A stretch of 32,000 nt of DNA from Planctomycetales bacterium (GTDB lineage: Bacteria > 4484-113 > JAFGCY01), in the NCBI GenBank assembly GCA_022646745.1, contig CP060262.1:1980001-2012000 (forward strand). Direction: 5' to 3'. A program made the position numbers and the translations under genes. Shown here piece after piece: positions 2,688-26,450 of this stretch. Within the stretch, counting starts at the first letter, position 1. Every line of letters starts with the position of its first letter. Under the pieces are notes generated by a model. It made no database searches. It saw only the letters and a program-made list of their open reading frames with translations, and was not told the origin of the DNA.

Positions 2688-5600
2688 ATGGGAATGACCA
2701 AACGGATTCTCAGCATCGCAGCCCTTGCTTCAGCCACTATCATCGGCCTGATGGCAGCGGCGCAGGCCTCGATGTTCGACCTCGTCTCCGATGCGGACTA
2801 TTCGCAGTGGGGCATGCGCAACCGTCCATTTCCATTCCTGCCGGGGGAGGGCAAGTTTGCCGACTACGGTTGCTTCCCGCTTGGCAACGGCTACATCTTC
2901 GGTCACCTCGGAGTGGACGGTGACTTCTCGCTTATGCGCGGGCTGACCGGCCCCGGCTACCAGACCCGTGGTGACAACGGCGACTGGCAGGTCTGGCAGG
3001 AAGGCAACTGGCCGGACATCGCGCTGTCATTCAAGGCCACGGCCCCGAAGGGCAGCTTCAACCCGGTATTCCATCTCGGAGAGCAGTGGGGCGCGCAGTC
3101 CATCCAGCAGGTGCTGGGGGCGGCGATTGTCAGGGTCAGGCAGAGCGCTGATTTCGGCGAGCTGGACTGCATCCAGTACGCCGTATCCGGCATGCCGGTG
3201 CTGGTACGGGAGTACCGCTTCAGGCCGGTGGAGGGCCGGGCCGACCCGGACTGGCAGTACTGCCTGCAGGTCGGCACGGAGGCGAACGAAACGGAATACG
3301 ACGGCCTGGTCTTTCACCAGGGAGAGAACCGCCTGACGATCCAGTGCAGTGGATTCCTTGAAGTGGACGGCCTGCAGCAGTGCATCGCCGGTGAGATGCA
3401 GGAGGACGGCAGCTGGAGATGCACTGTGGCCTACATTGCCAGCAAGGCCGGTGAACCACGCACTGCGGTGGAGCTTGACAGTGCTGGGCTGGCCGACCTG
3501 GCAACGCGTACCCGTGAATGGTGGCGCGAGTTCAGTGCTGCCAACTACGGATACGAGGATGCGCTGGCGTGGCCCTGGAGCGACATGCCGCATTTCGGCA
3601 GTGAATGGATGCAGCCGCGCCTGTCACACATGATGCTGCAGCTCCCCGTGATCATCGAGACCCAGCGTGACCACTACAGCGGCTCTTCCTCTCCGATGGT
3701 CAGCTACCACGGTTGCTGGGTGCGCGACAACAACGGCATCATCCTGACGGACATCGTCAACAAGCGCTACGACAACGTGATGCGCCTGCTGCGCTACCAC
3801 CGCGCGGCCTGCGTGTCCTACGGCTCCTGCCCGATGCTGGTGCCGCTGGACCTCGACCTCTCCGGCCTCGATGGCTGGCAGCCCGGTGAGCCGGGCACGG
3901 CTGGCGACCTGTCGGGCATTGGCGCAACCGGCTTCGACTGGAGCGCTTTCGGCGTGGAGCATGCCGAGGTGCCGAGCCTGATCGTGCTGCAGCATTACCT
4001 GCTGTGGCGCGCGATGATGCAGGATGGCATGGTGGAGGAAGCGACGGAGTTCATGCAGGAAAGCTGGGGTTTTGTCACGCACAACCTAATGGCGATGGAC
4101 TACTCCACCGAGTACGGCGTGCGCTTCCACGGTGACGAGACCTACACCCAGGGTGCGCTGTACTCCACCTACGACCGCGTGGAAAGCGGGCAGATCGGCT
4201 GGCCCAACGGCTACATCCCGACCAACTTCTACAGCTTTGACAACACCATCCTGCATCGCGCGGCTGCTGCGGCAATCATCGAGATGTCCGGTTCCATAGG
4301 GCTGGACAGTGGTTTTGATGTGGCCCTGCGGATCCGTGATGAGCTGGATGATGTGGTAAATGACAACTACATCCTGGATGGGCGGATCGTGGCTGCCATC
4401 TCACCGAGCACCGGCCAGCCCTGGCTGCCGCCATTTTCCAACATCAACCTGCGGCCCTACTGGCTGGGGCTGGACTACGGCCTCGATGAAGAACTGCTGC
4501 GTGACAACTTCATCCGGGTCAGGAGGTACCTCAACTACATCAGGCCGGTTGACCGGGCGGATGGCAAGCACCTGCCTGACAGCACTCCCTGGAGTGGCTA
4601 CATGACGGGGCACAACATTGCCTATTTCATTTCAGGGAACTGCAGCGTCGCTGAAAATGTGTTCCTCGGGACTGAGAACCTCGGTTATGAGGTCGTGATC
4701 GGCACGGCCAGCCCGGAAGGTGCCTGGTGCGAAGTGCTCGGCCCGGACGGTGCGCCGGTTGACATCTACGGCCGCACCAACCGCATCCGGCCCTGGGAAA
4801 GTGGAGTCAACTACCAGGCAATTGTCCGCATGATGGAAGATGGGATTGACTATATTGCCGAGGAAAAGGTAAGGGAATGGGACAGATCCACAGAACCTCC
4901 CGTTGCCACTGCATCACACGACACGCAGATCCTCGCCCTGACGCGCGACAACCACTTCCGCGAACTCTACCCACTGGACAGCCGCATGGCCTGGGTGGAG
5001 CAGCAGCACATCACCGCCTGGGACATCGCCTTGCCGTTCTCTCCGGATGAGCTGGCGCGCGCGCTGATGTTCGAGGAAGGCGACATTGACTACAACATCC
5101 CCTTCCTGTTCATTGACCGCGACGTGAGAACTGGCCTCGACCGGCGCACCATGAAGGATGAGCACTTCTGGGCGGAGATGGACAAGGTGATCGCTGAATA
5201 CGAGGCTGCCGGTGGGATCGTCGTCACCGAGGATACGCTGCAGCTTTCGCTGGCAGACGATGAGGCGGTCGGCCTGAAGGTGCTGGTCGCGCTCTACCCG
5301 AATACATTTGCGCACCGCATGACGGATGGCGAGATCGCCAACTTCCGTGATGAAGTCGGCAGCTGGATGGACTGGTACCGCGAGATGGCCGGCGACCGGC
5401 TGCAGTTCGAGCTGGACTACCTCGTGATGCCGCATACGCTGTCGCCGGAGCAGTGCGGCCGCGAGAATGGCAACGTGTTCTGGCTCGGCAGCACGGATGT
5501 GGAGGCTGACCTCAGGGCCTACGGCGTGCCTGACAACCACTACGACCTCGTGGCTTGCTTCTGGGGCTGGGACCGTGATCGCCAGCAGATTGAGCTGGAT

Positions 5601-7526
5601 GGTGAACAGGCCCTGCAGGCCTACGGCGGGGCGGCCCAGGGCCCAGCGCCGGACATGGCCTTCATGGGCCAGGCCGGACGCACAGGCTATTACGGCAGCG
5701 CGATCCTGAACAGCCATCCTGACAACATCCACAAGGTGGCGATCCACGAACTGCTGCACAACATCGACGGCCTGTTCCGCACGGCCGGGATGCCGGGGGA
5801 TTTCCTCAATGCTGACGACATGGCGGCCAATATCGAACTGCTGCTCAGGGAACAGCCGGGCTGCTTCGAGGCCGTCGGCTTCACTGACGAGGCGATCCGT
5901 GGGCTTGCCGACAGGGAGATGCGCAAGGAGGCCGGCTTCCCATGGGAGGCGCAGCTCGTCTACTACGAATGGATGCTGAGGCGCACGCCGCGCGACAGTT
6001 ATGCGCGCCTGCTGCTGAACTACGGCGAGCGGGTGAAGCAGTCCGCGGAACCGGTGGATCTGAAGGCGCTGGGTGAGGACTTTGGCAACCGCTATGTGGC
6101 GGCTGTACTCGCTGACGACGACATCGACTGCCTGATCGGGCAGGACTTTGAAATCTACCTAGACATGGAACAGTCAGGTGTGCTGCCGCCGGGAGTGGGC
6201 ATTGAGCTTGTTGCCGAGTTTGCCGGCGAGCGGATGGCGACCCTGCCGGAGGGTGAGGGCTGGATGCTGCGCATCCCGCAGGACAGCATCGGCAATGGAG
6301 CGCTGGCGCTGCATTTCGATGTGCTGGACTACACCCTGCCACGAAACCGGTTGGACACCCAGCTTTGCTTCCCGGTGCGCACTGTGCAGTTGCACCTGCG
6401 ACCGATCTGGCATGCGGAACTGGACTGGGACGACGCGGAGAACAAGATGACAGTGGCCATCAGCGGGCCGGAAGGGACATACGACTGGAAGCTCAGCACG
6501 GCGCACCATCCCAGCCTGATCGAGGAGCGCCTGCATGAGGACGGCCTGCTCGCGGATTTTCAGTACGAAGCCGAGGGCAGCATTGCCAACGGGGGTGAGG
6601 CAGTGCTTGGTATGCATGCGGAGCAGTATGCCCGCCTGCGCAATGAGAGCTTCTCTCTCGATGTGACATTCACGGACGAATCCGGCAACAGCGGCAGCTT
6701 CAGCCACAGCTTCCCCGGCACACAGCGCCTGCGCGACAGGCTGAAGGGGATTGACCCGAAGGCCCTGCCGGACTATGTGATCAGGGCGACTTACTATGAT
6801 GAATCACTGGATGAAGAATACGCAACCGGGAAAATGCCTTTCAATCCGCAGGAGAACTCGATAAGCCCTAAAAATGGCAACGTATTCTCGGGTCAGGTAG
6901 AATCAGAAGTTGATGCAAAGCTGGATTTCACAGTTTACTATGATGAAGATACAGTTCACCTGTTTGTCATCCTTACCGACGATATGGCACCTGGCAACGG
7001 AATCTGGGATTCAGACAGGATAAACCTGTGCTTTGATACACTCGTTGACAGCGATGAAATGGACTATCCAAATGGTCCGGTAGGTCATACGGCTTGGCAG
7101 GCCGACGATTACTGGGTGTTCTTCTGCCCATTTGTTACGGATGGCCCAAGGGTAATGCGACTTGGTGGACTGAACCCCAGCGGCGTTGGAAATGGTTACT
7201 ACGGTCCAGTTGCAGATTGTGACTACTACGTAGGGATAATCAATGACTTGCGCAGCTCCGAAGCTGGAAGAGCAAACTCAGCTGATTCGAGGACTCAATT
7301 TGTCCATGAGTATGGTGTCACCTGGACCATCCCGCTTTCCGAGTTGCCATATCTCGATGCCACGCCCGGCAGCTTCTGCGGTTTCACGATCTTCTACTCC
7401 GACTATGACGAAGGCCTGTCCGAGATGATGTACTTCAACGACTGGGGTGGTGACAACGGCATTGACTGGCGCTTCTGGGATACCGGACTGCTGTACTTCG
7501 AACCTCCCGGGGAGCCGCAGGACTGA
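2688..7526 (+). CDS. secreted 1612-aa multidomain protein: signal peptide, six-hairpin (GH15-like) glycosidase-like region, HEXXH zincin-like region, C-terminal CBM9-like module
   Basis: N-terminal signal MGMTKRILSIAALASATIIGLMAAAQA. YHGCWVRDNNGII and PWESGVNY resemble (alpha/alpha)6 GH15-type barrels. HELLH sits at nt 5745-5759 with a Glu 26 residues after the second His. The C-terminal pattern (VHLFVILTDD ... CGFTIFYSDYDEG) resembles CBM9/DOMON-like modules. Domain calls are by eye only. Confidence 0.8.
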   Translation: MGMTKRILSIAALASATIIGLMAAAQASMFDLVSDADYSQWGMRNRPFPFLPGEGKFADYGCFPLGNGYIFGHLGVDGDFSLMRGLTGPGYQTRGDNGDWQVWQEGNWPDIALSFKATAPKGSFNPVFHLGEQWGAQSIQQVLGAAIVRVRQSADFGELDCIQYAVSGMPVLVREYRFRPVEGRADPDWQYCLQVGTEANETEYDGLVFHQGENRLTIQCSGFLEVDGLQQCIAGEMQEDGSWRCTVAYIASKAGEPRTAVELDSAGLADLATRTREWWREFSAANYGYEDALAWPWSDMPHFGSEWMQPRLSHMMLQLPVIIETQRDHYSGSSSPMVSYHGCWVRDNNGIILTDIVNKRYDNVMRLLRYHRAACVSYGSCPMLVPLDLDLSGLDGWQPGEPGTAGDLSGIGATGFDWSAFGVEHAEVPSLIVLQHYLLWRAMMQDGMVEEATEFMQESWGFVTHNLMAMDYSTEYGVRFHGDETYTQGALYSTYDRVESGQIGWPNGYIPTNFYSFDNTILHRAAAAAIIEMSGSIGLDSGFDVALRIRDELDDVVNDNYILDGRIVAAISPSTGQPWLPPFSNINLRPYWLGLDYGLDEELLRDNFIRVRRYLNYIRPVDRADGKHLPDSTPWSGYMTGHNIAYFISGNCSVAENVFLGTENLGYEVVIGTASPEGAWCEVLGPDGAPVDIYGRTNRIRPWESGVNYQAIVRMMEDGIDYIAEEKVREWDRSTEPPVATASHDTQILALTRDNHFRELYPLDSRMAWVEQQHITAWDIALPFSPDELARALMFEEGDIDYNIPFLFIDRDVRTGLDRRTMKDEHFWAEMDKVIAEYEAAGGIVVTEDTLQLSLADDEAVGLKVLVALYPNTFAHRMTDGEIANFRDEVGSWMDWYREMAGDRLQFELDYLVMPHTLSPEQCGRENGNVFWLGSTDVEADLRAYGVPDNHYDLVACFWGWDRDRQQIELDGEQALQAYGGAAQGPAPDMAFMGQAGRTGYYGSAILNSHPDNIHKVAIHELLHNIDGLFRTAGMPGDFLNADDMAANIELLLREQPGCFEAVGFTDEAIRGLADREMRKEAGFPWEAQLVYYEWMLRRTPRDSYARLLLNYGERVKQSAEPVDLKALGEDFGNRYVAAVLADDDIDCLIGQDFEIYLDMEQSGVLPPGVGIELVAEFAGERMATLPEGEGWMLRIPQDSIGNGALALHFDVLDYTLPRNRLDTQLCFPVRTVQLHLRPIWHAELDWDDAENKMTVAISGPEGTYDWKLSTAHHPSLIEERLHEDGLLADFQYEAEGSIANGGEAVLGMHAEQYARLRNESFSLDVTFTDESGNSGSFSHSFPGTQRLRDRLKGIDPKALPDYVIRATYYDESLDEEYATGKMPFNPQENSISPKNGNVFSGQVESEVDAKLDFTVYYDEDTVHLFVILTDDMAPGNGIWDSDRINLCFDTLVDSDEMDYPNGPVGHTAWQADDYWVFFCPFVTDGPRVMRLGGLNPSGVGNGYYGPVADCDYYVGIINDLRSSEAGRANSADSRTQFVHEYGVTWTIPLSELPYLDATPGSFCGFTIFYSDYDEGLSEMMYFNDWGGDNGIDWRFWDTGLLYFEPPGEPQD

Positions 7527-8710
7527 TGATCGGCTGGCAGCGCATGAGCGATTTCTTCGTGAAGCACTTCGGTGATGAACCGGAGATCGCCTGCTGTGCG
7601 CCGGGCCGCATCAACCTGATCGGTGAACACATTGACTACGCCGGCGGGCAGGTGCTGCCGCTGTCCATCTCGCTCGGTGTCAGCGTGGCCGTGCGTGCCA
7701 CCCGCCAGGGCCTGCTGCGCGTGGTGTCCGACGAGTACCCTGGACAGGGGATCGTCACCCTTGATGGCAGCACTGCGCAGGACGGGCCGGCCGGCTACGT
7801 GCTGGAGCTGGCGCGCATGACGGAAACCACATCCGCCCAGATTGCCATTCTTTCAGACCTGCCGGTCGGGCAGGGCCTGTCCAGTTCGGCGGCGATTGGC
7901 ATCGCCGTGCAATGTGCGCTGCTGGCGCTCAAGCCTGACGCGGTGATGCCCAGTGCACGGGCCGTCTGCCGTGCGGCCCAGCGGGCGGAGCACCTGGCGC
8001 TCGGCACAAGCTGCGGCATCATGGACCAGTACGCTTCGATGTTCGGCAGCCCCGGCAATGCGATCCTGATCGATACCTGGCAGGAGACGCATCAGGCCGT
8101 GCCGCTGGACAGCCTGGCCGGCTGCAGCATCATCCTCGTTGACAGCGGACAGCCGCGGGAGCTCAGCGCTTCGCAGTACAACCAGCGCCATGCGGAGATG
8201 ACCGGTGCGCTGAATGAGGCAAAACGCTTATGTGGCGGCTTCAACTGCTTCAGGGAGAAGGCACATGACGAGCTGTTGACAATCGCTGAAGCGATGCCAG
8301 AGCCGGCAAACCGGCGGATGCGGCACCTGCTGATGGAGCAGCGCCGCGTCGGACGCTTCCAGGATGGCCTGCGCGAACGTGACCTGAAGATGCTTGGCAG
8401 GATCCTGTATGCAGGACATTGCAGCCTGCGCGATGACGCAGAGGTCAGCACACCGCAAATTGACACATTGGTGGAGATGCTCTGCTCGACCCCTGACTGC
8501 CTCGGCGCCCGCCTGATGGGCGGCGGCTTCGGTGGCAGCGTGCTGGCGCTGTTTGAAAGCCCGCCGGACGAGTTCCTCATGGCCGGCCTGCTGCGCGACT
8601 ATGCCGGCGAGACGACGCTTGGCGGACGCTGGCTGCAGGTCGAGCCGGGACCGGGTGCCTGGCTGCAGAGCGGACGGGGCAGCTGGCGCAGCGTGGCGGA
8701 GTGGCTGTGA
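7526..8710 (+). CDS. galK: galactokinase-family GHMP sugar-1-kinase
   Basis: Galactokinase signature GRINLIGEHIDY and GHMP motif PVGQGLSSSAA. The ATG shares one base with the upstream TGA (TGATG at 7524-7528); ATG 7544 is an alternative start. Confidence 0.85.
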   Translation: MIGWQRMSDFFVKHFGDEPEIACCAPGRINLIGEHIDYAGGQVLPLSISLGVSVAVRATRQGLLRVVSDEYPGQGIVTLDGSTAQDGPAGYVLELARMTETTSAQIAILSDLPVGQGLSSSAAIGIAVQCALLALKPDAVMPSARAVCRAAQRAEHLALGTSCGIMDQYASMFGSPGNAILIDTWQETHQAVPLDSLAGCSIILVDSGQPRELSASQYNQRHAEMTGALNEAKRLCGGFNCFREKAHDELLTIAEAMPEPANRRMRHLLMEQRRVGRFQDGLRERDLKMLGRILYAGHCSLRDDAEVSTPQIDTLVEMLCSTPDCLGARLMGGGFGGSVLALFESPPDEFLMAGLLRDYAGETTLGGRWLQVEPGPGAWLQSGRGSWRSVAEWL

Positions 8711-9732
8711 TGAAGGGACTGATCCTCGCCGCCGGTCGCGGTAGCCGCCTGGCCCCGCTGACTGACACGGTTTCCAAGCCGCTGTTGCCACTGGCTAACC
8801 GGCCACTGATTGACTACCCGCTGCAGCAGCTGCTGGATGCCGGCATCACGGAGATCTGCATCGTTGCCAACCCGGACAACCGTAACGAACTGGAGGCTGC
8901 ACTGGATGGCACTGCGGCCCGGATGCACTACATCATCCAGCCGGAACCGCTCGGGCTGGCACATGCCGTCGGCTGCGCCCGTGAGTTCTGCGGCGGCAGT
9001 GAGTTCGTGCTGCTGTTCGCTGACAATGTGTTCCTGCAGCCGCTGGAGACCGGGCTCGCCGCCTGGCGTGAACTGCAGCCGAACTGCATCATCCACACCA
9101 TCGAACTGGATGACCCGCGCGCCTTCGGCGTGGCCGTGCTGGATGGGCAGCGCGTGGTGGACCTCGAGGAGAAGCCGGCGGTCCCACGCAGCAACCACGG
9201 CGTGATCGGCATCGACATCTTCACGCCGGAGATCTTTGAGGCGATTGACAGCATCCAGCCCAGCGCGCGTGGTGAGTATGAAATCACCGACGCAATGATG
9301 GAGCTGGTGCGCCGTGGCCGGCATGTACACGCCGTGCCCCTGATCGGACCCTGGTATGACACCGGTACCTTCGCCGACCTGATCCGCGCTCACCACTGCG
9401 CGATGGACACCTGGCAGCAGTTCGAGCTGGCGGACGGCATCGAGCAGCGCCAGAGCCATACCGTGTTCGACGTGGATGTACAGGCCGGCACCCGGCTGGA
9501 TGGCGCACGCCTGATCGGGCCGGTGCGCGTGGCGTCCGGTTGTGAGATCGTTGACAGCGTTCTCGAGGAGTACGTCTCCGTCGGGCGCGACTGCCGGATC
9601 CAGAGCTGCCATTTCACCAACGTCCAGCTGATGCCCGGCAGCCGGGTGCGGAACCTGGTCGCGCGCGACTGCATCATTGCGCCCGGCCTGCAGGTGACGG
9701 CAGAGGGCGAGAAGATTCCGCTGGACGGCTGA
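8710..9732 (+). CDS. sugar-1-phosphate nucleotidyltransferase (RmlA/GlmU-like fold with C-terminal left-handed beta-helix)
   Basis: MKGLILAAGRGSRLAPLT (GxGxRL motif), PLGLAHAV and EKP motifs, and hexapeptide-like repeats at the C-terminus. The ATG overlaps the galK TGA (TGATG at 8708-8712). The track start at 8701 (GTG) is judged less likely. Confidence 0.85.
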   Translation: MKGLILAAGRGSRLAPLTDTVSKPLLPLANRPLIDYPLQQLLDAGITEICIVANPDNRNELEAALDGTAARMHYIIQPEPLGLAHAVGCAREFCGGSEFVLLFADNVFLQPLETGLAAWRELQPNCIIHTIELDDPRAFGVAVLDGQRVVDLEEKPAVPRSNHGVIGIDIFTPEIFEAIDSIQPSARGEYEITDAMMELVRRGRHVHAVPLIGPWYDTGTFADLIRAHHCAMDTWQQFELADGIEQRQSHTVFDVDVQAGTRLDGARLIGPVRVASGCEIVDSVLEEYVSVGRDCRIQSCHFTNVQLMPGSRVRNLVARDCIIAPGLQVTAEGEKIPLDG

Positions 9733-9758: not shown

Positions 9759-10826
9759 ATGCAACAGCGCGAGGCCACAAGCGTCCTGCCCGTCCACTGC
9801 TGGAACACCGCGGTGTCCTGCCTGGCCTGCCTCGCTGACAGCCTCAGCCTCGACCTGCCGTTCGAGCATGTCGCCGGCCTGAGCGGCGAGGCCTTCCGCC
9901 TGCCGCTGTTTGCCAACACCACCCCCGGCAGCTGGCAGCACAGCGTGAGCTGGCCACACGCCGCGCTCAACTGGATGGAGTCACTCGGCATCGATGCCGA
10001 GATATGCTGGACTGACAGCGCCGCCGCTTCCTCTGACAACTGGCACTCGAGGCAGCGCACGCTGATCAGCGAAACGCTTGGCAGCGGACTGCCGGTGATG
10101 TACTGGGACAACCTCGCCTGGTCAGTGATCCTTGCCGAGGATGCCGACAGCTACCTTGTGAGCGGCATCCCGGCGCTGCACATCCCGGACGGGCTGCCAC
10201 ATGCCGAAGCCCTGCGCCGGCGCAGCTTCGGGGCGGAGGGCCACGGCCCGGATGGTGCGTTCCGCATCCCGCGCGAGGAGCTGCGTCCTCTATTCGAAGG
10301 TGACCAGCTGTTCATCCATCCGCGCGGGCTGGCTGCATCCGATCCGGAGTACCGCCTGGCAATGGCGCTGGCGCGTGCCGCCAATGAACTGGGCGGTGTG
10401 GTGAACTGGCCGCGGCTGGTTGATTCATCCGGCCACAGGCTTGGCCCGCTGTTCGGTACGGCGGCGATGGAGCGCCTGGCGATGGAACTGAAGGGTGGTG
10501 AGCCGGGTCTGGATGGATTGATCAGCAGCATGCAGACCCTGCTGGAAATGCGGCGCGCTGCCCTGCGCTGGCTGTCGGACCTGGCGGCCGAGACGGAGGG
10601 TGAGCTGCAGCCGCGGCTTAAGCAGGCCGCGGAATTCATGCGCCGGATCGTAGCCGGGCTGAGGCCGGTCGCCGCTGATTTCGCGCTGCCGGCGGACCCG
10701 CGCACACAGCTCCGCAAGGAGCTGCTGGAGCGCAATGCGAATGCGCTGTATGAGGTGCGGCGCACCGAGGAGACACTGACCCGCCTGCTGCGCGGGATTT
10801 CCGGGGACTTCGGCGTTTTCAGCTAG
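9759..10826 (+). CDS. hypothetical protein (possibly BtrH-N / papain-like fold with a helical C-terminal domain; weak)
   Basis: 355-aa ORF with host-like codon usage, 26 nt after the nucleotidyltransferase. An N-terminal HCW motif and the overall length recall BtrH_N+DUF4872 proteins, but this is memory-based and unverified. Confidence 0.6.
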   Translation: MQQREATSVLPVHCWNTAVSCLACLADSLSLDLPFEHVAGLSGEAFRLPLFANTTPGSWQHSVSWPHAALNWMESLGIDAEICWTDSAAASSDNWHSRQRTLISETLGSGLPVMYWDNLAWSVILAEDADSYLVSGIPALHIPDGLPHAEALRRRSFGAEGHGPDGAFRIPREELRPLFEGDQLFIHPRGLAASDPEYRLAMALARAANELGGVVNWPRLVDSSGHRLGPLFGTAAMERLAMELKGGEPGLDGLISSMQTLLEMRRAALRWLSDLAAETEGELQPRLKQAAEFMRRIVAGLRPVAADFALPADPRTQLRKELLERNANALYEVRRTEETLTRLLRGISGDFGVFS

Positions 10827-10887: not shown

Positions 10888-11376
10888 ATGCAAGGTAATT
10901 TCTTACGCAGAACGCAGATATTCATCCTGCTGGCCTTCATGGCCGGCATGTTCGCCGGTTCAGCCATGCAGCCCACGCGGGCGATGGCGGGCTGGGACCT
11001 CGGCGACCTGATCAAGGACGGCGCCAAGGGAGCGATCGTCGGCGGTGGTATCGCCTACCTGGTGAAGCAGAACGCCAAGGACATCGACAAGACGATCAAC
11101 AAGCTCTACAAGGACAATGACTTCCCGATCGGGGCCGCGACGAGGGTCGTGCCGATCGTCGATGCGCTGGGCACCAAGCACGTCGGTGCCGCCCAGATCG
11201 TTGGGCCGCAGGCTGCTGTGGATGAGGTATCCAGCGTTGTGCTGCTGGAGACAAGCTTCCTCGACAAGGTCTTCCGCATCAACGGTTACGTGCCGGTGAA
11301 GGGCAACGTGGACGACCTGAAGCGTGTTGCCGGAGTCGGCGTGAGCGCGGTGATTGATGTTAAGGTGGCGCCGTAG
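10888..11376 (+). CDS. small secreted hypothetical protein
   Basis: SD AAGGAG lies 7 nt upstream. Signal peptide is MQGNFLRRTQIFILLAFMAGMFAGSAMQPTRAMA. No family recognised. Confidence 0.65.
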   Translation: MQGNFLRRTQIFILLAFMAGMFAGSAMQPTRAMAGWDLGDLIKDGAKGAIVGGGIAYLVKQNAKDIDKTINKLYKDNDFPIGAATRVVPIVDALGTKHVGAAQIVGPQAAVDEVSSVVLLETSFLDKVFRINGYVPVKGNVDDLKRVAGVGVSAVIDVKVAP

Positions 11377-11716: not shown

Positions 11717-12334
11717 ATGAAGTTCGATGGACATCGGGGATTCTACAAGTCACAGCGCTTACCACATTTTGATTCGGCAGGTTTGATTCAATTTGTCACA
11801 ATTGCCCTGGCTGATGCTGCTCCCAAAACAAGGAAACCGCTAACTGCAGGATCAAAGCAGAATAGTGACCAGCAATTCATGGAGATGGATTCAATCCTGG
11901 ATACTTCAAGGGGAGTCTGTCTGTTTAGAATGCCACGGCTTGCCTGGATTGCCGGTGACCTTGCCAGGCAGGGAGAATACCTCGGTTGTATTCCCTTGGC
12001 GTGGGTAATTATGCCCAATCATGCGCATCTGCTGTTTGGTCAGACAAAAGGCACCATGCTCAGTGAGGTCGTCAGGAAATTCAAGGGCAGGAGTGCTTAC
12101 CTTATCAATGCTGAGACAGGAAAGTCCGGGAAAGTCTGGCAAAAAGGATACTTTGACCGTGCCATGCGTGACCTGAACCACTTCGCAGCTACATTGGAAT
12201 ATATCCATGAGAATCCAGTGAAGGCAGGGCTTGCATCCCGGGCTGAAGACTGGAAGCAAAGCAGTATTCATGATACTTCGTTGGAATTGGCAATCAGCGT
12301 GATTGAGCAAAAGGGGTTGCTGTCGGTATCTTGA
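11717..12334 (+). CDS. REP-associated tyrosine transposase (RAYT, IS200/IS605-like Y1 HUH family)
   Basis: HUH motif in VIMPNHAHLLF, then KVWQKGYFDRAMRD, and a catalytic Tyr context in YIHENPVKAGL. Confidence 0.85.
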   Translation: MKFDGHRGFYKSQRLPHFDSAGLIQFVTIALADAAPKTRKPLTAGSKQNSDQQFMEMDSILDTSRGVCLFRMPRLAWIAGDLARQGEYLGCIPLAWVIMPNHAHLLFGQTKGTMLSEVVRKFKGRSAYLINAETGKSGKVWQKGYFDRAMRDLNHFAATLEYIHENPVKAGLASRAEDWKQSSIHDTSLELAISVIEQKGLLSVS

Positions 12335-20173: not shown

Positions 20174-20788
20174 TCAGTCCGGCAGCTGGCCATAGCTCGG
20201 CAGCTTGAAGATCTCACCGAGACTGGCATAGCGCCCGCCACCCATGCGCGCCAGCGGCTTAAGCCGGTGCGGGTCGATCGCGCCGCGCGCATCAATCAGG
20301 GTGTCGCGGATATGGAACATCAGCACGTCGGCGAGGATCATCGCCCCGCCGCTTTCCTCGAATTCGATCACCTGGCGCAGGCGGCATTCCATGCTGACCG
20401 GTGCTTCCTTCACGAACGGTGCACTGACCACGGATCCGAAGGCCGGCGTGAGCTTCGTGGCCGCGAATTCATCCTCGCCATAGGGCAGTTCCGCGCTGCT
20501 TTCATGCAGCTGGTCGCCGTGCTGCAGGTCGCAGATGCTGATCGTGAGTTCTCCTGTCCGGCGGATGTTGAGCAGCGTGTCCTTGCCTGGCTTGCTTTCC
20601 GTTGGTGAAAAGCCCAGCCCGACCACCGGCGGGGTGGCGCTGAAGGCGTTGAAGAAGCTGAACGGGGCGAGGTTATGCCCGCCCGCCTCATTGTTCGTAC
20701 CCACCCAGGCGATCGGGCGGGGCACGATCGCGCTGATCATCAGGAAGTAGCGCCGCCCGGGGGAAAGGGTCTGTGGGTCGATGTGCAT
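20174..20788 (-). CDS. flavin reductase-like FMN-binding protein
   Basis: VPRPIAWVGTNNEAGGHNLAPFSFFN is typical of the flavin reductase domain. ATG at 20788 has GGAGG 5 nt upstream. The track ORF extension to 21016 overlaps moxR and is rejected. Confidence 0.82.
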   Translation of the reverse strand: MHIDPQTLSPGRRYFLMISAIVPRPIAWVGTNNEAGGHNLAPFSFFNAFSATPPVVGLGFSPTESKPGKDTLLNIRRTGELTISICDLQHGDQLHESSAELPYGEDEFAATKLTPAFGSVVSAPFVKEAPVSMECRLRQVIEFEESGGAMILADVLMFHIRDTLIDARGAIDPHRLKPLARMGGGRYASLGEIFKLPSYGQLPD

Positions 20789-20799
20789 TGCAACCTCCG

Positions 20800-20808
20800 T
20801 GTTAAAAT
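20800..20808 (+). promoter_or_regulatory. candidate extended -10 element (TGtTAAAAT) for moxR
   Basis: Sequence pattern 22 nt upstream of the moxR ATG, in a 42-nt divergent intergenic region. Confidence 0.3.
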
Positions 20809-20830
20809 AGCGGGAACTCAGTATTGTCCC

Positions 20831-21841
20831 ATGAGTACAGGCTCCATGAGCAATCCGGAACCGGTGACGAACAGCCCCTCCGTCTCCATCAGCCCCGCTG
20901 AACTGGACGGCGCGCTGGCGCTTGTCAACCGGGTGATCCGCAACATCGAGCTGGCCATCTTCGGCAAGCGAGACGTGATCGAGCTGGTGCTGATCGGCAT
21001 GTTCTCCGATGGCCATGTGCTGCTGGAGGATGTGCCCGGCGTGGGCAAGACCATCCTCGCCCGTGCACTGGCGCGCAGTGTGAAGGCCGACTTCAAGCGC
21101 ATCCAGTTCACCCCGGACCTGCTGCCGGCGGACGTCACCGGAGCCAATACCTACGACCAGAAGGAAAACAAATTCTCCTTCCGCCCGGGACCGATCTTCG
21201 CCAACATCCTGCTGGCGGATGAGATCAACCGTACCAGCCCGCGCACCCAGTCATCGCTCTTGGAGGCGATGGAGGAGCGCCAGGTCACCGTGGACGGCGT
21301 GACCTACCCGGTGCCACGGCCCTTCTTCGTGATCGCCACCCAGAACCCGGTGGAGCAGCAGGGCACCTACGACCTGCCGGAGGCGCAGCTGGACCGCTTC
21401 ATCCTGCGCGTCAAGATCGGCTATCCGAGCATCGACCACGAGGCGGAGATCCTCGAGGCCCAGCGCCGCACGCATCCGATCGAGGAGCTGGAGCCGATCT
21501 GCGGGCCGGACGAGATCATGTCCATCCAGCAGCTCGTGCGCCGCATCGGGGTCAAGCCGAGCCTCAGGCGCTACGTCGCCGAGATCAGCGCGGCCAGCCG
21601 CGAGCACCCGGATGTGCTGGTCGGCGTCAGCGTGCGCGGCAGCCAGCGCCTGATGACGGCGGCGCAGGCCTACGCGATGCTCAACCACCGCGACTACATC
21701 ATCCCGGACGACATCCAGAGCGTGGCGCCGCACTGCCTGGCACACCGCATCCTGCTGCGTCCCGAGGCCAAGCTGGCCGGCGTGGACGAGAAGAGCGTGC
21801 TTAAGGCCATCCTGCGCCAGATCAGCGTCCCGGCGCAGTAG
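20831..21841 (+). CDS. moxR: MoxR-family AAA+ ATPase
   Basis: Walker A DVPGVGKT, Walker B LLADEINR, and SSLLEAMEERQVTVDG. The start is set at ATG 20831 (MSTGSMSN); the longer track ORF from 20675 overlaps the divergent gene. Confidence 0.92.
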   Translation: MSTGSMSNPEPVTNSPSVSISPAELDGALALVNRVIRNIELAIFGKRDVIELVLIGMFSDGHVLLEDVPGVGKTILARALARSVKADFKRIQFTPDLLPADVTGANTYDQKENKFSFRPGPIFANILLADEINRTSPRTQSSLLEAMEERQVTVDGVTYPVPRPFFVIATQNPVEQQGTYDLPEAQLDRFILRVKIGYPSIDHEAEILEAQRRTHPIEELEPICGPDEIMSIQQLVRRIGVKPSLRRYVAEISAASREHPDVLVGVSVRGSQRLMTAAQAYAMLNHRDYIIPDDIQSVAPHCLAHRILLRPEAKLAGVDEKSVLKAILRQISVPAQ

Positions 21842-21918
21842 GAGCTACCCGCTTCAGCGGTAGTGGAGCAGCGGCGCAAGTCGCACAACGGAGCTACCCG
21901 CTTCAGCGGTAGTGGAGC
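21841..21918 (+). repeat. two direct REP copies (same family as the RAYT-flanking REPs)
   Basis: ggagctacccgcttcagcggtagtggagc occurs at 21841-21869 and 21890-21918. The first copy starts within the moxR stop codon (TAG 21839-21841). Confidence 0.9.
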
Positions 21919-21920
21919 TG

Positions 21921-22129
21921 CGGCGCAAGCCAGGCGCGGAGGTCGAGCGCAAGCTCGGCGCGGTATCCCGGCGCAAGCCGGACGCTGGTTTGATCAACCA
22001 CAAAGGGCACCAAGATCACAAAGTGGCAATCCAGTTCACTAAGCCAATCTTCGTGATCAACTGAAAACTTCGTGTCCTTCGTGTCTTCGTGGTGAATCTT
22101 CCCTACGGATCTACGGCGCAAGCCAGGCG
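21921..22129. repeat. composite repeat: 16-nt direct repeats bracketing GCAA-loop mini-hairpins and an imperfect inverted repeat of (CACRAAG)n / (CTTCGTG)n
   Basis: CGGCGCAAGCCAGGCG occurs at 21921-21936 and 22114-22129. Mini-hairpins are cgagc-gcaa-gctcg (21944-21957) and ccggc-gcaa-gccgg (21968-21981). Inverted-repeat arms are at 21998-22026 and 22068-22094. Confidence 0.75.
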
Positions 22130-22156
22130 GTGTGTTGCTCTGTGAGCAACACACCG
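22128..22156. other. perfect 13-bp stem hairpin, 24 nt upstream of the lipoprotein gene start
   Basis: cggtgtgttgctc-tgt-gagcaacacaccg, with no T-run on either strand. Confidence 0.7.
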
Positions 22157-22179
22157 TCAATTCAAGGTAAAATCAAAGC

Positions 22180-24819
22180 ATGAAAACTCGCCGGGCCACA
22201 TCGCTCGCATTGGTCCCGTTCATGCTCGGGGTGATCCTGCTGGCAGGCTGCAAGGGCGGCACCAGTCCTGAAGCGCTTTCTCCTGATTCCAGTAACACCG
22301 CCAACCAGTTCCCCGAGTTGCATGATGCCCTGGCTGCCGAGTTCGCCCGCCTGGGCATTGACCCTGACAAGGTGCCCGCCAAGGTGGCCAGCGGCGACTC
22401 CAACGCCGTGTTTGATCTGGCCCTCACGGTTGACGACCCCGATGGCGAAGGTCCCACACCTGCCAGTGGAGTGACGCTCAAGTGGACTGAGCGCATGCTG
22501 GGGGACTACGATCAGAACGGCCTGGTGAACGCTTCCGATATCACACCTCTCGGGCAGAATTTCCAGCAGGCAGTTACTTACGACGATCCCTTCAGTCACA
22601 ACGGTCTGGAATACTGGCCCGCAGGCGACCCGGACGACGGCGGCAGTGGCGCTGCAAACTGGCGGCGCGCTCGCGTGGATGGCAACGATGACGGGCTTGT
22701 CGGCCTGTCCGATATCACCACCATCGCCCAGCACTGGAATGAACAGCTTTCCGGCTACGTGGTGCAGATGGCGGTCAACCGGGGCGATGGCGAACTGAAC
22801 TGGACTGATGTGGACAGTGGCAACGGCATAGCTCCCAGCATTGCCCGTCCCAGCGTCAACAATGCAGCGGCCGTGCGCTACGAACTGTATATCCCGTTGG
22901 GCGAAGCGCAGTTTGCTCATCATTTCCGTGTGCTGCCATACGACGCTGTGACAGACGAGCGCGGTGAATTGTCAAACCGGGCGGACTACTATCCGGTGAG
23001 CCAGGGCGATACCACCCCGCCTTACTGGCTGGATACCGTAGGCGTACAGAAACTGGTTCCCTCCAGCGAGCAGATCAAAGTGGAGTTTGGCAACGCAGAG
23101 GACAGCCAGTCCCCGCCCGTCAGCTACCGCATCTACTGGGAGGAAAGCTCAGAGGGCAGCCTCGATCCATTCGATTATGTCAGCGCCCAGTCAGCGGATG
23201 TGATGGATTCACCCTACACGATCACTGGCCTGACGAATGAGCTGTACTACCGCGTGGCGGTGCGCGCGTTGGACAGCGCGGAAACACAGAATGAAGAAAA
23301 GAATCAGGTGCTGCTGGGTGCAATGGTTGAACCGCGTGATGTGTATCCACCGGAGTGGACTGCCCGTGTTGGTTTGCAGGAAGTGCTCTACGGTAACGGC
23401 CTGGCTGTCATGATCTGGGATCCGGCAGTTGACAGCCATACTGATGAACATGGCACCTGGGAAAGTGGCCCGGTGATTTACAGGGTTTACTATGGCGAGG
23501 GCTTAACTCCTGACTTCAACAAAGCGACTACTCTGGACTTCCCTGATAAGGGTCTTGACTATTACATAGTCACGATCCCTGATCTTGACACTTCGATTCA
23601 TCGCTGGTTCAGCGTGCGCGCGTTGGACCAGGCAACAATACCAAATGAGGATGACAACGATGCCGTGATCGTGCGGCGTGGCTCAGTTGTCACCAACCAT
23701 GAGAAACCCGGACCTGGTCCGGGAATTCCTCCGACGGCGCAAAAGGATGCGAGTAGTAAAGCAGCTGAGCCGGATGGTTTCGTGCAGAATGCCAGCCGCA
23801 CGGAGACCTACTATTACGACTGCTATGTGGATCCGCCTGGAGAGGACATGGTTCCACGCGAGAATTGGATCAGCCTCTGGAAGATTGAGGGGAATAGTAT
23901 CACTCATTCGCGTGATCTGATGATCGGTGAATACACCGGGGAGCTGGTGGTGCAGGCGCTTTGTGTTGACAACGTTGGAAAGCTGAAAGTGTTCTCAACT
24001 TTGAACCCCTCCTTGTCAGGAATGACCACAGTTGAGTTTCGGGAAGGGGAAGGTGAAATTTTCAACAAAGAGATGCCAAAATGCTCAATAACACATGCTG
24101 GCTGTACATATGATCCAAGCGACATTTGCTGGTCTGGGATCGCAAAATGGGAAAATGATGATGTGTTGAACCCTAGATTTACTTATTACCTTGACATACC
24201 TCCATTGAATTTGCTGAGTTCATACTGGGATACCGATGATCACGATGGATTCATTTCAAACCCCAGTCTGGACAGCGCATTCCTTAGTGATTCCAGTATT
24301 TTCACGCTGATTAGACCAACAGATCCAAACGATGGAAATTACCTGTACTCACTAGAAGTGACTAGTTCTGAAGTTGTTGTCAAGCCGTTTAACATGTTTC
24401 CAGAAACGAGCGGTGTTAGTGTTACTGGCTGGGATTCAATTAACCCGTTGTTTGTGGAGTATCACAAGAATGGCAATGAACATGTTACTTCAATGTACCA
24501 AGGAGAATGGGAAGGACACTATGAGGAAGTAAGACCGTTGTCAGAGCAAGGAAGATTGTATTACACTGTCCGTTCACAATTTGAAGTAATCATGTCTGCT
24601 AGTGGTTCCGCATTACAATTCTACGATTTTGCTAATCCTGTTAAATTTATTCGAAGAACATACTTAGTACTAGAAGATACTAGTTATGCAATTCCTTCGG
24701 GGCTGGATTTAGGTTTGAACTTCAATTTGGGAATCAACATCCGTACGGATAGTTCTGAATACTGTGGGTTCAGCAATACAATTGGTGGGGACTTGATTTC
24801 AACTGTACAACTCCAGTAA
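22180..24819 (+). CDS. lipoprotein with a dockerin-type repeat pair, FN3-like domains and a low-GC C-terminal region
   Basis: Lipobox in MKTRRATSLALVPFMLGVILLAGCK. Dockerin/EF-hand-like repeats are GDYDQNGLVNASDITPLGQNF (22501-22563) and DGNDDGLVGLSDITTIAQHW (22678-22740). FN3-like segments include SYRIYWEE...YTITGLTNELYYRVAVRALD. Confidence 0.85.
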   Translation: MKTRRATSLALVPFMLGVILLAGCKGGTSPEALSPDSSNTANQFPELHDALAAEFARLGIDPDKVPAKVASGDSNAVFDLALTVDDPDGEGPTPASGVTLKWTERMLGDYDQNGLVNASDITPLGQNFQQAVTYDDPFSHNGLEYWPAGDPDDGGSGAANWRRARVDGNDDGLVGLSDITTIAQHWNEQLSGYVVQMAVNRGDGELNWTDVDSGNGIAPSIARPSVNNAAAVRYELYIPLGEAQFAHHFRVLPYDAVTDERGELSNRADYYPVSQGDTTPPYWLDTVGVQKLVPSSEQIKVEFGNAEDSQSPPVSYRIYWEESSEGSLDPFDYVSAQSADVMDSPYTITGLTNELYYRVAVRALDSAETQNEEKNQVLLGAMVEPRDVYPPEWTARVGLQEVLYGNGLAVMIWDPAVDSHTDEHGTWESGPVIYRVYYGEGLTPDFNKATTLDFPDKGLDYYIVTIPDLDTSIHRWFSVRALDQATIPNEDDNDAVIVRRGSVVTNHEKPGPGPGIPPTAQKDASSKAAEPDGFVQNASRTETYYYDCYVDPPGEDMVPRENWISLWKIEGNSITHSRDLMIGEYTGELVVQALCVDNVGKLKVFSTLNPSLSGMTTVEFREGEGEIFNKEMPKCSITHAGCTYDPSDICWSGIAKWENDDVLNPRFTYYLDIPPLNLLSSYWDTDDHDGFISNPSLDSAFLSDSSIFTLIRPTDPNDGNYLYSLEVTSSEVVVKPFNMFPETSGVSVTGWDSINPLFVEYHKNGNEHVTSMYQGEWEGHYEEVRPLSEQGRLYYTVRSQFEVIMSASGSALQFYDFANPVKFIRRTYLVLEDTSYAIPSGLDLGLNFNLGINIRTDSSEYCGFSNTIGGDLISTVQLQ

Positions 24820-24852
24820 CTTTCGACTAATTTTTTCTAAAAGGAGAATGAC

Positions 24853-25140
24853 ATGGGAATCACTAAGAAAGTCGCGATTGCGATGATTTTGTCGATAATG
24901 CTTGCTTCATGTGGAGGACAGAAAGACAACAGTCTCGATAAGCAGACTTCGATTGCTGAGCAGCTTCGCAGCACAATCACAGTCCAGTGTCGCGATGGCT
25001 TTGATGGCATTCAGGGTGCCAGTGATCTCAGGGTGGAAATCTCTGAAGCTGAGGGCAACGCAGTGCTACGGCCGCCCTTTCCTTTTCTCCTTTGTTACAC
25101 TCCGCTACCCCCGACAACCCAGCTCCCACATCCTCAGTGA
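24853..25140 (+). CDS. small lipoprotein (hypothetical; 3' end possibly degenerate)
   Basis: SD AAGGAG lies 7 nt upstream. Lipobox in MGITKKVAIAMILSIMLASCGG. Low GC, like the 3' end of the upstream gene. The last about 25 codons run into a C-rich tract, giving a Pro-rich tail. Confidence 0.55.
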   Translation: MGITKKVAIAMILSIMLASCGGQKDNSLDKQTSIAEQLRSTITVQCRDGFDGIQGASDLRVEISEAEGNAVLRPPFPFLLCYTPLPPTTQLPHPQ

Positions 25141-25141
25141 T

Positions 25142-25182
25142 CCCCGTTCCCCCGCCCCTTGCCGCCGCTCCCCCTCCCCCCC
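25142..25182. other. C-tract cluster (i-motif on plus strand / G-quadruplex potential on minus strand)
   Basis: C-runs of 4, 5, 4, 5 and 7 within 41 nt: cccc 25142-25145, ccccc 25149-25153, cccc 25155-25158, ccccc 25170-25174, ccccccc 25176-25182. They sit in a G-poor pyrimidine stretch spanning about 25075-25190. Confidence 0.6.
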
Positions 25183-25202
25183 TGCGATACCATTAAAGTA
25201 GC

Positions 25203-26450
25203 TTGCTCTCATCCAAGTTCACAGTGCATTCGGTGGTGTTCCTGTTCCTCACCCTGTTCACGGTCGTCGTGGCCTGGGTTTTCAGGAACCCGCTGCTCGT
25301 GTACACCGCCGTGTTCCTCGTGGTCACGAACTTCGTGCTCTACATCTGGGCGCAGTACTCCGTGAACGGGATGAAGGTCGAGCGCCGCCACCCGCCGCAT
25401 GTGATGGCCGGGCGTGAGGCCGAGGTCGAGGTGCTCTTGGAGAACACCCGCACCACCGCGCGCTACGGCACGATGGGTTTCGACATCCACGCCAAGCTGG
25501 TGCCCGGCAAGGAGTACACCCCGGTGGCCTTCCTGTCGGCCCCGCCCGGTGAGAAGGTGCTCTCCAGCTACCGCGTCACCCCGGCGCGGCGCGGGGTGTA
25601 CGAGCTCGGCCCGTTCTTCCTCTACGGCGGCGACCCCTTCGGCTTCTACAAGTGCTGGCGCAAGCTGCGCGTGCCGACGGAGCTCGTGGTGCTGCCGGAC
25701 CCGGTGCCCTTCCGCTTCCGCCAGCCACCCTCGGCCTCGATGCTTGCCCAGGACGAGCTGGAGACGCAGCCGCTGGCCGGCGAGAGCAGCGAGTTCCTCG
25801 GGGTGCGCGAGTATGTCTCCAGCGACCCGATGAAGCGCGTGCACTGGATGAGCAGTGCGCGCCACGGCAAGCTGATCACGAAGCAGCATGAGATGAACGT
25901 TGCCAGTTCGATCTCGGTGCTGCTGATCTCCGACGAGGCGATGTGGCAGGGCATCGGGCACAACTGCCCGGTCGAGTTCGCGATCCGGATGGTTGCCAGC
26001 CTGGCCTATGCCAGCTGCTTCAACCGCTTCAAGCTGCACTACCTCGCGCTGATGGGTGACAACTACGAGAGCCAGGCCGGCAACGGCCAGGGCTTCTTCC
26101 GCGAGCTGTCCATCCGGCTGGCGCGGCTCAGCGGGCGCGGCGCGATCAACTGGGACCACAGCGGCAAGGTGGTGCTTGGCTACCTGCCGGCGGGCTCGAG
26201 CCTCGTGATCCTCACGATGGACCTCGGCCAGAGCAGCCGCCAGCGCTTCCGCAACATGGCGGCGCGCTACCGCAGCGTGGTGGTCGTCACCTTCAACGCC
26301 GAGAGCTTCCGCAAGATGCAGCCCGCTGAGCGGCCCGGCCCGCGCCTGAGCTTCGGCGAGGGCTACCTGATCCTCGAGGTGTTCTACGGCGACGACCTCG
26401 GTGCCACGCTCGAGCAGATCAACGAGAAGTCGATGGTGGTGGTGCGCTGA
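25203..26450 (+). CDS. DUF58 domain protein (MoxR-associated, vWA-like)
   Basis: Two N-terminal TM helices and the DUF58 hallmark REYVSSDPMKRVHWMSSARHGKLITKQ. The start is uncertain (TTG 25203 or GTG 25222) and no SD is visible. Confidence 0.85.
   Translation: MLSSKFTVHSVVFLFLTLFTVVVAWVFRNPLLVYTAVFLVVTNFVLYIWAQYSVNGMKVERRHPPHVMAGREAEVEVLLENTRTTARYGTMGFDIHAKLVPGKEYTPVAFLSAPPGEKVLSSYRVTPARRGVYELGPFFLYGGDPFGFYKCWRKLRVPTELVVLPDPVPFRFRQPPSASMLAQDELETQPLAGESSEFLGVREYVSSDPMKRVHWMSSARHGKLITKQHEMNVASSISVLLISDEAMWQGIGHNCPVEFAIRMVASLAYASCFNRFKLHYLALMGDNYESQAGNGQGFFRELSIRLARLSGRGAINWDHSGKVVLGYLPAGSSLVILTMDLGQSSRQRFRNMAARYRSVVVVTFNAESFRKMQPAERPGPRLSFGEGYLILEVFYGDDLGATLEQINEKSMVVVR

Follow-up and report, generated by a model that had tools for sequence, protein, structure and literature searches.

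Can a single exported protein unite a glycosidase with a metal-dependent hydrolase, and, if so, what would such a pair act upon? The question is raised by a gene in a 32,000-nucleotide stretch of DNA from a Planctomycetales bacterium (assembly GCA_022646745.1, contig CP060262.1, positions 1,980,001 to 2,012,000; hereafter the window), in which an open reading frame (ORF) runs uninterrupted from 2688 to 7526 on the forward strand and encodes 1612 amino acids (aa). An original prediction, made from the sequence alone, had read the product as an exported chain with a barrel like that of glycoside hydrolase (GH) family 15, a peptidase-like HExxH region of the M60-like gluzincin type and a tail resembling the carbohydrate-binding module (CBM) family 9 or DOMON domains. 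Structure prediction, fold searches and homologue alignments uphold the overall architecture, in which a barrel resembling six-hairpin glycosidases, a domain whose HExxH is conserved and a tail like CBM9 or DOMON share a single exported chain, but neither of the two enzyme family names. On balance, we consider it somewhat probable that this protein is a secreted modular enzyme degrading a galactose-bearing glycoconjugate, built from a glycosidase core, an optional zinc-hydrolase cassette and a CBM9-like tail and served by a salvage operon.

Relatives of the full protein are scarce, as only 33 were found among 5.8 billion clustered proteins, none of them bearing a functional name. An alignment of the 22 closest resolves the protein into three blocks: a core (aa 1–851) kept in all 22; a cassette (aa 852–1237) present in 13 and cleanly absent from 6 that retain the C-terminal part; and a tail (aa 1238–1612), which three proteins about 900 aa long lack. 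Family alignments served as input for two AlphaFold2 models, model A for aa 1–860 and model B for aa 745–1612 (868 residues). Model A (mean predicted local distance difference test score, pLDDT, 83.6; predicted template modelling score, pTM, 0.87) comprises a signal helix, a beta-sandwich at 38–253, an all-helical barrel at 265–718 and an alpha/beta domain at 748–846. Model B (pLDDT 90.2, pTM 0.81) comprises the HExxH module at 852–1116, a series of beta-sandwich domains and, at the C-terminus, a large beta domain. The N-terminus, MGMTKRILSIAALASATIIGLMAAAQA followed by S, is of the Sec type in its charge, its hydrophobic core and its AxA arrangement, as the claim of a signal peptide had it. 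Pfam and NCBIfam searches of the whole protein returned CBM9_1, below threshold, as the sole match. The ORF and motifs lie where they had been placed, with YHGCWVRDNNGII from aa 340, PWESGVNY from aa 702 and HELLH, the only HExxH of the protein, from aa 1020. The features of the protein are the following.

2688–7526, forward strand: whole ORF, 1612 aa, 100% identical to 'hypothetical protein H7A35_07835' of the metagenome-assembled genome Planctomycetales bacterium.
2688–2771, forward strand: Sec-type signal peptide, aa 1–28 (AQA, then S), read from the sequence, with a helix at 3–22 in model A; boundaries presumed.
2799–3446, forward strand: N-terminal beta-sandwich, aa 38–253, as precedes the GH15, GH63, GH65 and GH94 barrels (model A; Foldseek alignments cover sandwich and barrel).
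3480–4841, forward strand: (alpha/alpha)6 six-hairpin glycosidase-like barrel, aa 265–718 (model A, Foldseek, invariant residues in 33 homologues).
4929–5225, forward strand: small conserved alpha/beta domain, aa 748–846 (models A and B, alignment of close homologues).
5241–6035, forward strand: HExxH module, aa 852–1116, of an uncurated family of mostly free-standing secreted proteins (alignments, profile search, model B).
5745–5759, forward strand: HELLH, with H1020, E1021 and H1024 as two putative zinc ligands and a putative catalytic base (conservation in homologues).
5766–5768, forward strand: D1027 of HExxHxxD, Asp or Glu in 53/59 relatives, likely a second-shell residue on the active-site helix (59-sequence alignment).
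5814–5816, forward strand: D1043, 19 residues past the second His and before helix 1045–1055, candidate third metal ligand (alignment, model B).
5835–5837, forward strand: E1050, the third-ligand Glu of the original prediction, not conserved (homologue alignments).
6036–6398, forward strand: beta-sandwich, aa 1117–1237, which travels with the module (alignments, model B).
6399–6767, forward strand: immunoglobulin (Ig)/FN3-like beta domain or domains, aa 1238–1360, boundaries approximate (model B, Foldseek).
6780–7523, forward strand: CBM9/DOMON-like C-terminal domain, aa ~1365–1612 (Pfam, PDB profile, Foldseek).

The glycosidase-like barrel is recognizable by fold. Foldseek aligned model A with PDB structures at probability 1.0 across about 800 columns, at 10–12% identity and a TM score of about 0.45, the matches being GH94 phosphorylases (top, 2.5e-13), GH116, the bacterial GH15 glucoamylase 1lf6 (2.3e-10), glucodextranase, GH63 YgjK, GH65 PGGHG and a GH95 fucosidase. 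The claim of an (alpha/alpha)6 barrel is therefore upheld by the predicted structure and the fold search. By sequence, the barrel region of the query had no match in Pfam, NCBIfam or the PDB, and distant homologues (E 1e-19 to 1e-36) bear Bac_rhamnosid6H, MGH1-like_GH or Trehalase domains in Pfam. Because of the barrel fold and these distant homologues, we conclude that the barrel is a member of the six-hairpin glycosidase superfamily (Pfam clan 6_Hairpin), outside any curated family. The label 'GH15-like' proved too specific: Glyco_hydro_15 had no match in the query (Pfam, E<=1) or among the 33 family members (E<=0.01), and GH94, GH116, GH63, GH65 and GH95 fit the fold about as well as GH15 in the Foldseek ranking. 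Membership of GH15 was accordingly rejected.

Residues invariant in the 33 homologues include Y340, W344, R346, D347, E427, H436, G482-D483-E484-T485-Y486, D518, E682, R701, W703 and E704. The first four fall in YHGCWVRDNNGII, whose Y-x-x-x-W-x-R-D pattern we take to resemble the substrate-binding motif of GH15, and R701, W703 and E704 lie in or beside PWESGVNY. In model A, GDETY occupies the loop after helix 449–469, PWESG opens helix 702–718, and E682 and E704 sit around the last barrel helices. Inverting six-hairpin enzymes put their acid and base at sites like the GDETY loop and the last barrel helices, and by this analogy the invariant acidic residues D483/E484, E682 and E704 are candidates for the acid and base. 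The protein shares the beta-sandwich-then-barrel layout with six-hairpin glycosidases (GH15 1lf6, GH63 YgjK 3d3i, GH65 PGGHG 9sd8, GH94 cellobiose phosphorylase 3qde, GH116 5bvu, GH95 2ead), and, as placed in model A, its invariant acidic residues would occupy the loops where those families have their acid and base. It differs from those enzymes in an extra alpha/beta domain (aa 748–846) and a long C-terminal extension that are foreign to them. This alpha/beta domain, which belongs to no family, is kept in all 22 close homologues, including the 900-aa core-only forms, and has invariant D779, D810, R819, R820, K823, W828 and G842-G843.

In the cassette, the central observation is the conservation of the HExxH motif. 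H1020, E1021 and H1024 are kept in 13/13 fused homologues, where D1027, D1043 and E1055 are likewise invariant. The motif also persists in an alignment of 59 diverse module relatives at 20–50% identity (H1020, His in 59/59; E1021, Glu in 58/59; H1024, His in 58/59), as do the glycines of a YGG loop (G980 in 55/59 and G981 in 57/59). Given this conservation across homologues, the motif stands above chance expectation and, as judged from the alignments, is a genuine conserved active-site-like motif of an uncurated family. In the same alignment, the column of D1027 holds Asp in 45 sequences and Glu in 8, and column 1043 holds Asp in 52, His in 7 and nothing else, in register within F-P-x-x-[DH]. 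Since column 1043 is limited to two classical metal ligands and stays in register, D1043 appears to be the leading candidate for the third ligand of the metal. The Glu that the original prediction had counted 26 residues past the second His does exist (E1050), but its column holds Glu in only 6/13 fused homologues and 5/59 relatives, and the segment is deleted in 36/59. Conservation in homologues had been proposed as a check on both elements, and it bore out the HExxH but not the downstream Glu. E1055 (+31 from the second His), invariant only in the fused subfamily and found in 14/59 of the module family, was rejected as a universal third ligand, its helix being deleted in 38/59 relatives.

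In model B, the elements of the module, mostly at pLDDT >90, follow the order b1 (859–870), aA (880–901), b2 (905–913), aB (935–944), b3 (954–961) and b4 (1000–1007), after which comes a long helix (1011–1032) with HExxH in its middle, then D1043, two residues ahead of helix 1045–1055, and three more helices. In zincins, the N-subdomain contains a mixed beta-sheet and the helix that bears HExxH, and the third ligand, which may be Glu, Asp or His, comes from the C-subdomain (PMC3890501). The module fits this two-subdomain layout in the order of its predicted secondary-structure elements. On the motif and this predicted order, the module is most likely a zincin-like metallohydrolase. In common with the zincin metallopeptidases in which a long active-site helix is followed by an element bearing an acidic third ligand (thermolysin-type Glu-zincins and Asp-zincins), the modelled module has a beta-strand followed by the HExxH helix, an N-subdomain of sheet and helices and a helical C-subdomain with a conserved acidic or His residue. 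Its candidate third ligand is Asp or His, unlike that of Glu-zincins, and its sequence resembles no MEROPS-type Pfam family (31 members compared). The 19-residue spacing to D1043 is presumably close to the His-to-Glu spacing of thermolysin, and HExxHxxD recalls, as we understand those enzymes, neprilysin and anthrax lethal factor. The Asp-zincin and metzincin sub-types were rejected as assignments, as HEXXHXXGXXD and HEXXHXXGXXH are absent; the query reads HELLHNIDGLF and the family consensus is HExxHxxDxxF.

A profile search run exhaustively over 1.84 billion cluster representatives gave 99 matches at E<=0.001, 46 of them at E<=1e-10; about 70 of the 99 hold the module proper and the remainder match the Ig-like part only. 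The module family thus amounts to about 70 clusters at 50% identity. Most relatives are free-standing proteins of 250–900 aa in which the module directly follows a signal-peptide-like N-terminus. CBM9_1 is their commonest partner (17/46), and discoidin, ConA-like, CBM6, TSP3, PPC and T9SS-sorting domains also occur, the pre-peptidase C-terminal (PPC) domain on one relative. One free-standing protein, P0035 (locus L009, 8001–10454), consists of a secreted HExxH module with Ig-like and CBM9-like domains, and so is the counterpart of the C-terminal half of the protein studied here; its gene lies 1.6 kb from an MGH1-like GH gene. Pfam (E<=10) and NCBIfam (E<=1) searches of 31 module members gave no recurrent family, the peptidase-related Pfam matches being single and weak (Reprolysin_5, 9e-4; Peptidase_M90, 0.056). 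PDB profile searches with full-length, module and core-motif alignments returned no peptidase, and, apart from the CBM9 structure given below, their matches were short-chain dehydrogenase noise (E 0.14–1.2). In the Foldseek search of model B against PDB and BFVD, Ig-like and CBM9 matches dominated, and the result was uninformative about the module. Searching a word index with the module profile yielded a single protein already in the set, ten module relatives were either named 'hypothetical' or had no name at all, and the genes around P0069 and P0061, two distant members of the free-standing kind, had no consistent theme. The module family is rare, and it is undescribed in the literature searched.

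How firmly is the module attached to the core? In a neighbour-joining tree of the core, proteins without the cassette branch among those with it at three or more separate points. The closest cassette-less protein, P0003 (69% identity), is encoded in L002, a syntenic locus that has the same succession of citrate synthase, the homologous gene, kinase, nucleotidyltransferase and ORFs of 355 and 162 aa. Because the cassette-less lineages interleave with the others and a syntenic orthologue does without it, aa 852–1237, that is, the module with its beta-sandwich, is by the alignments an optional, accessory cassette that has been gained or lost as a block.

The assignment of the tail is correct at the level of fold, as both the predicted structure and Foldseek indicate. 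The query itself reaches only E=0.088 with Pfam CBM9_1 (13.1 bits against a gathering threshold of 23.4), whereas 11/33 homologues match it, the best at 2.3e-7, and the family profile finds the Thermotoga CBM9 structure 1i82 in the PDB at E=0.027. The tail of model B matches 1i82 (E=2e-7, TMt 0.63), 7nwn (1.5e-6), 4jpq and the DOMON-like 2ivf_C in Foldseek, so that, as modelled, it has the CBM9 beta-sandwich fold. It shares with CBM9-2 of Thermotoga maritima Xyn10A (1i82) and DOMON-like domains a W-x-x-D segment (W1440 in the query) besides the fold match, and differs from the CBM9 of Xyn10A in being attached to neither a xylanase nor a cellulase.

The strongest functional clue comes from the genes that follow, which appear to be translationally coupled to the large ORF and to each other.

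7526–8710, forward strand: galactokinase-like GHMP kinase, its ATG overlapping the stop of the large ORF (TGATG, 7524–7528).
8710–9732, forward strand: RmlA-long-like sugar-1-phosphate nucleotidyltransferase, its ATG overlapping the kinase stop (TGATG, 8708–8712).

The start of the transferase is probably this ATG at 8710 and not the GTG at 8701 of the mechanical listing. The kinase scores 2e-51 against true galactokinases and 2e-21 against GalNAc kinase, and the transferase 8.5e-40 against RmlA. Nine loci with homologues at 36–100% identity to the query (36–70% for the divergent lineages) and otherwise unrelated surroundings were compared, and 8/9 have a galactokinase-like gene, directly downstream in seven and 2 kb away in one; 6/9 have the nucleotidyltransferase as well. 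Four of the nine (L003, L005, L006 and L007) also carry, upstream, one or two MGH1-like, GH63 or trehalase-type GH genes and an SBP_bac_1 ABC sugar-binding protein. Given the linkage of galactokinase-like and transferase genes across loci, galactose or a closely related sugar is the most likely product of the core, and would be salvaged to a nucleoside diphosphate (NDP)-sugar. The idea, voiced in the original prediction, that the fusion attacks a glycoconjugate is consistent with these conserved neighbours. Like galactose salvage by an anomeric kinase and a sugar-1-phosphate nucleotidyltransferase, the window has a translationally coupled pair of GalK-like and RmlA-like genes; unlike the classical Leloir operon, it has no GalT-type uridylyltransferase.

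Several observations on the neighbourhood stand beside this result. At about 2459–2487, right after the citrate synthase gene (1139–2428), a hairpin rich in GC (ggcggcctccgggccgcc) and a T-run behind it resemble an intrinsic terminator; from its sequence, this element looks like a boundary that separates that gene from the large ORF and marks the start of the unit. On the 3' side of the transferase gene are ORFs at 9759–10826 (355 aa) and 10888–11376 (162 aa), neither of a Pfam or NCBIfam family, which may belong to the operon, since same-sized ORFs occupy the same place in L002. Shortly downstream of the operon comes an ORF for an IS200-like Y1 transposase (11717–12334; Pfam Y1_Tnp, 4.5e-10), and a faint Y1_Tnp gene is found directly upstream of the homologue in L007. 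In L005, genes for trehalose synthesis (TreT, trehalose phosphatase, GT20) are found shortly downstream on the opposite strand; an hhalign comparison of the core profile with the two MGH1-like GHs upstream in that locus showed no relationship (probability <2%). L002 (P0003, core and tail without the cassette) and L008 (P0020, core only) are both labelled JAFGCY0, and each has its own galactokinase-like and nucleotidyltransferase genes. Because they share this label, one genome may hold two paralogous operons, perhaps for different sugars.

How else could the cassette be read? A HExxH in a single sequence is, alone, weak evidence: shuffles of the protein (n=20,000) contained one in 5.3% of cases, in agreement with the few percent estimated beforehand, and the extended HExxH-x(8,28)-E in 4.1%. 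Those frequencies would allow HELLH to be a chance motif of a long protein, but its invariance over about 59 relatives at 20–50% identity makes this a negligible prospect. An M60-like or enhancin-type gluzincin mucinase domain, with E1050 as third ligand, is the assignment that the original prediction favoured, and the sequence does satisfy the HEXXH-x(8,28)-E pattern in an extracellular protein with a carbohydrate-binding partner, as in M60-like proteins. That family is defined by the PF13402 profile and the conserved Glu of this pattern, and its members, with those of the enhancin family (PF13402 and PF03272; BT4244), combine an extracellular HExxH with CBMs, a combination shared here that suggests a glycoprotein substrate (PMC3267712). 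The partner in the present family is CBM9-like, however, where M60-like proteins have CBM32 or CBM5_12; neither PF13402 nor PF03272 matched any of 31 members (E<=10) or the full protein; the Glu varies or is deleted as described; and the pattern arises in shuffles at the frequency just given. M60-like membership was rejected on the profiles and the Glu, and we regard an M60-type domain as very improbable.

It is also conceivable, though in our judgement unlikely, that the module binds metal without being a peptidase, acting instead on carbohydrate or a glycan–aglycone linkage (for example, as an amidase or de-N-acylase) or in metal-dependent binding. Its partners are nearly all carbohydrate-related, including, besides the CBM9_1, CBM6, discoidin and ConA-like domains, fusion with or proximity to six-hairpin GHs, and no peptidase match was detectable by sequence or among the fold matches listed. 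On the other side, a strict HExxH in a helix after a beta-strand, with a downstream Asp/His column, is a zincin peptidase hallmark (PMC3890501); one relative carries the PPC domain; and glycoprotein peptidases such as the M60-like ones also commonly bear CBMs (PMC3267712). For the barrel, the alternative is a non-hydrolase, that is, a glycoside phosphorylase, a transglycosylase or a catalytically dead binding scaffold. The GH94 phosphorylases that top the Foldseek list and the poor modelling of the loop with the invariant GDETY (pLDDT <50 for 482–497) could be taken that way. The protein has a signal peptide, however, unlike the phosphorylases of GH94 and GH65, the known examples of which are, to our knowledge, cytoplasmic; a phosphorylase would yield a sugar-1-phosphate and so make the conserved downstream anomeric kinase redundant; and a dead scaffold sits poorly with the many acidic residues invariant in 33 sequences. 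We hold a non-hydrolase barrel to be quite improbable.

The reading that we favour, a secreted enzyme for a galactose-bearing glycoconjugate, must also be set against results that weigh against it. No sequence method ties the module to a known peptidase, and the best 50 Foldseek matches listed for the multi-domain model B include none. The kinase and transferase both score under their NCBIfam equivalog cut-offs, so that the identity of the sugar is uncertain; the locus of P0006, one of the nine, is without the kinase; and the operon in the window has no transporter gene. The repeated loss of the cassette implies, moreover, that the core works without it.

For this favoured reading, a working scheme can be outlined, in which domain layout, motif conservation, the modular nature of the cassette and operon linkage are observed, and the metal site, the peptidase activity, the released sugar and the substrate are inferred. 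The CBM9-like tail and the Ig spacers would target the exported enzyme to a galactose-bearing glycoconjugate, where the six-hairpin core (aa ~30–851), as an undescribed branch of its superfamily, would hydrolyse terminal galactose-type residues. In the cassette, H1020, H1024 and D1043 would form a mononuclear zinc site, with E1021 as the general base and D1027 as second-shell support, and, where present, this unit would hydrolyse the aglycone, most likely the polypeptide of the same glycoconjugate. The imported sugar would be phosphorylated at C1 by the coupled galactokinase-like kinase, and the resulting sugar-1-phosphate converted to an NDP-sugar by the RmlA-like nucleotidyltransferase. A bolder version, which we put forward only tentatively, is that the module is the founding member of a new family of zinc hydrolases, secreted, recognizable by the signature HExxHxx[DE]xxF...x(~12)...[DH], dedicated to glycoconjugates and recurrent with CBM9-like and six-hairpin partners; here it would act in cis with a new glycosidase family, the pair stripping galactose-type sugars and cutting the polypeptide or the glycan–peptide linkage of a glycoprotein or proteoglycan while the operon salvages the sugar to an NDP-sugar.

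Farther along the window, the region 20675–29793 holds a MoxR-type AAA_3 ATPase, an 879-aa ORF without a family match (22180–24819), DUF58, a TgpA-like transglutaminase (26450–29032) and a YdjC-like protein. The rest of the window also has an M42 peptidase and a response regulator, and these and the MoxR, DUF58, TgpA and YdjC genes are unrelated to the fusion gene.

Multi-domain secreted carbohydrate-active enzymes from uncultured bacteria are common, and both folds considered here are known; the fusion of a glycosidase with an HExxH module that is lost block-wise and tied to a conserved salvage operon is nonetheless an unusual arrangement. By the profile searches, both presumed catalytic parts lie outside every curated Pfam and NCBIfam family and have no PDB sequence match, and for this reason both would escape routine annotation of carbohydrate-active enzymes and peptidases in metagenomes. 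Close relatives that differ by the clean and repeated loss of the cassette provide a natural experiment on the contribution of a peptidase-like addition to a glycosidase. Should the barrel release galactose, it would represent a new glycoside hydrolase family that comes with a genetic clue to its product, and, should the module be an active zinc hydrolase, it would represent a new family whose domain partners point to glycoconjugates.

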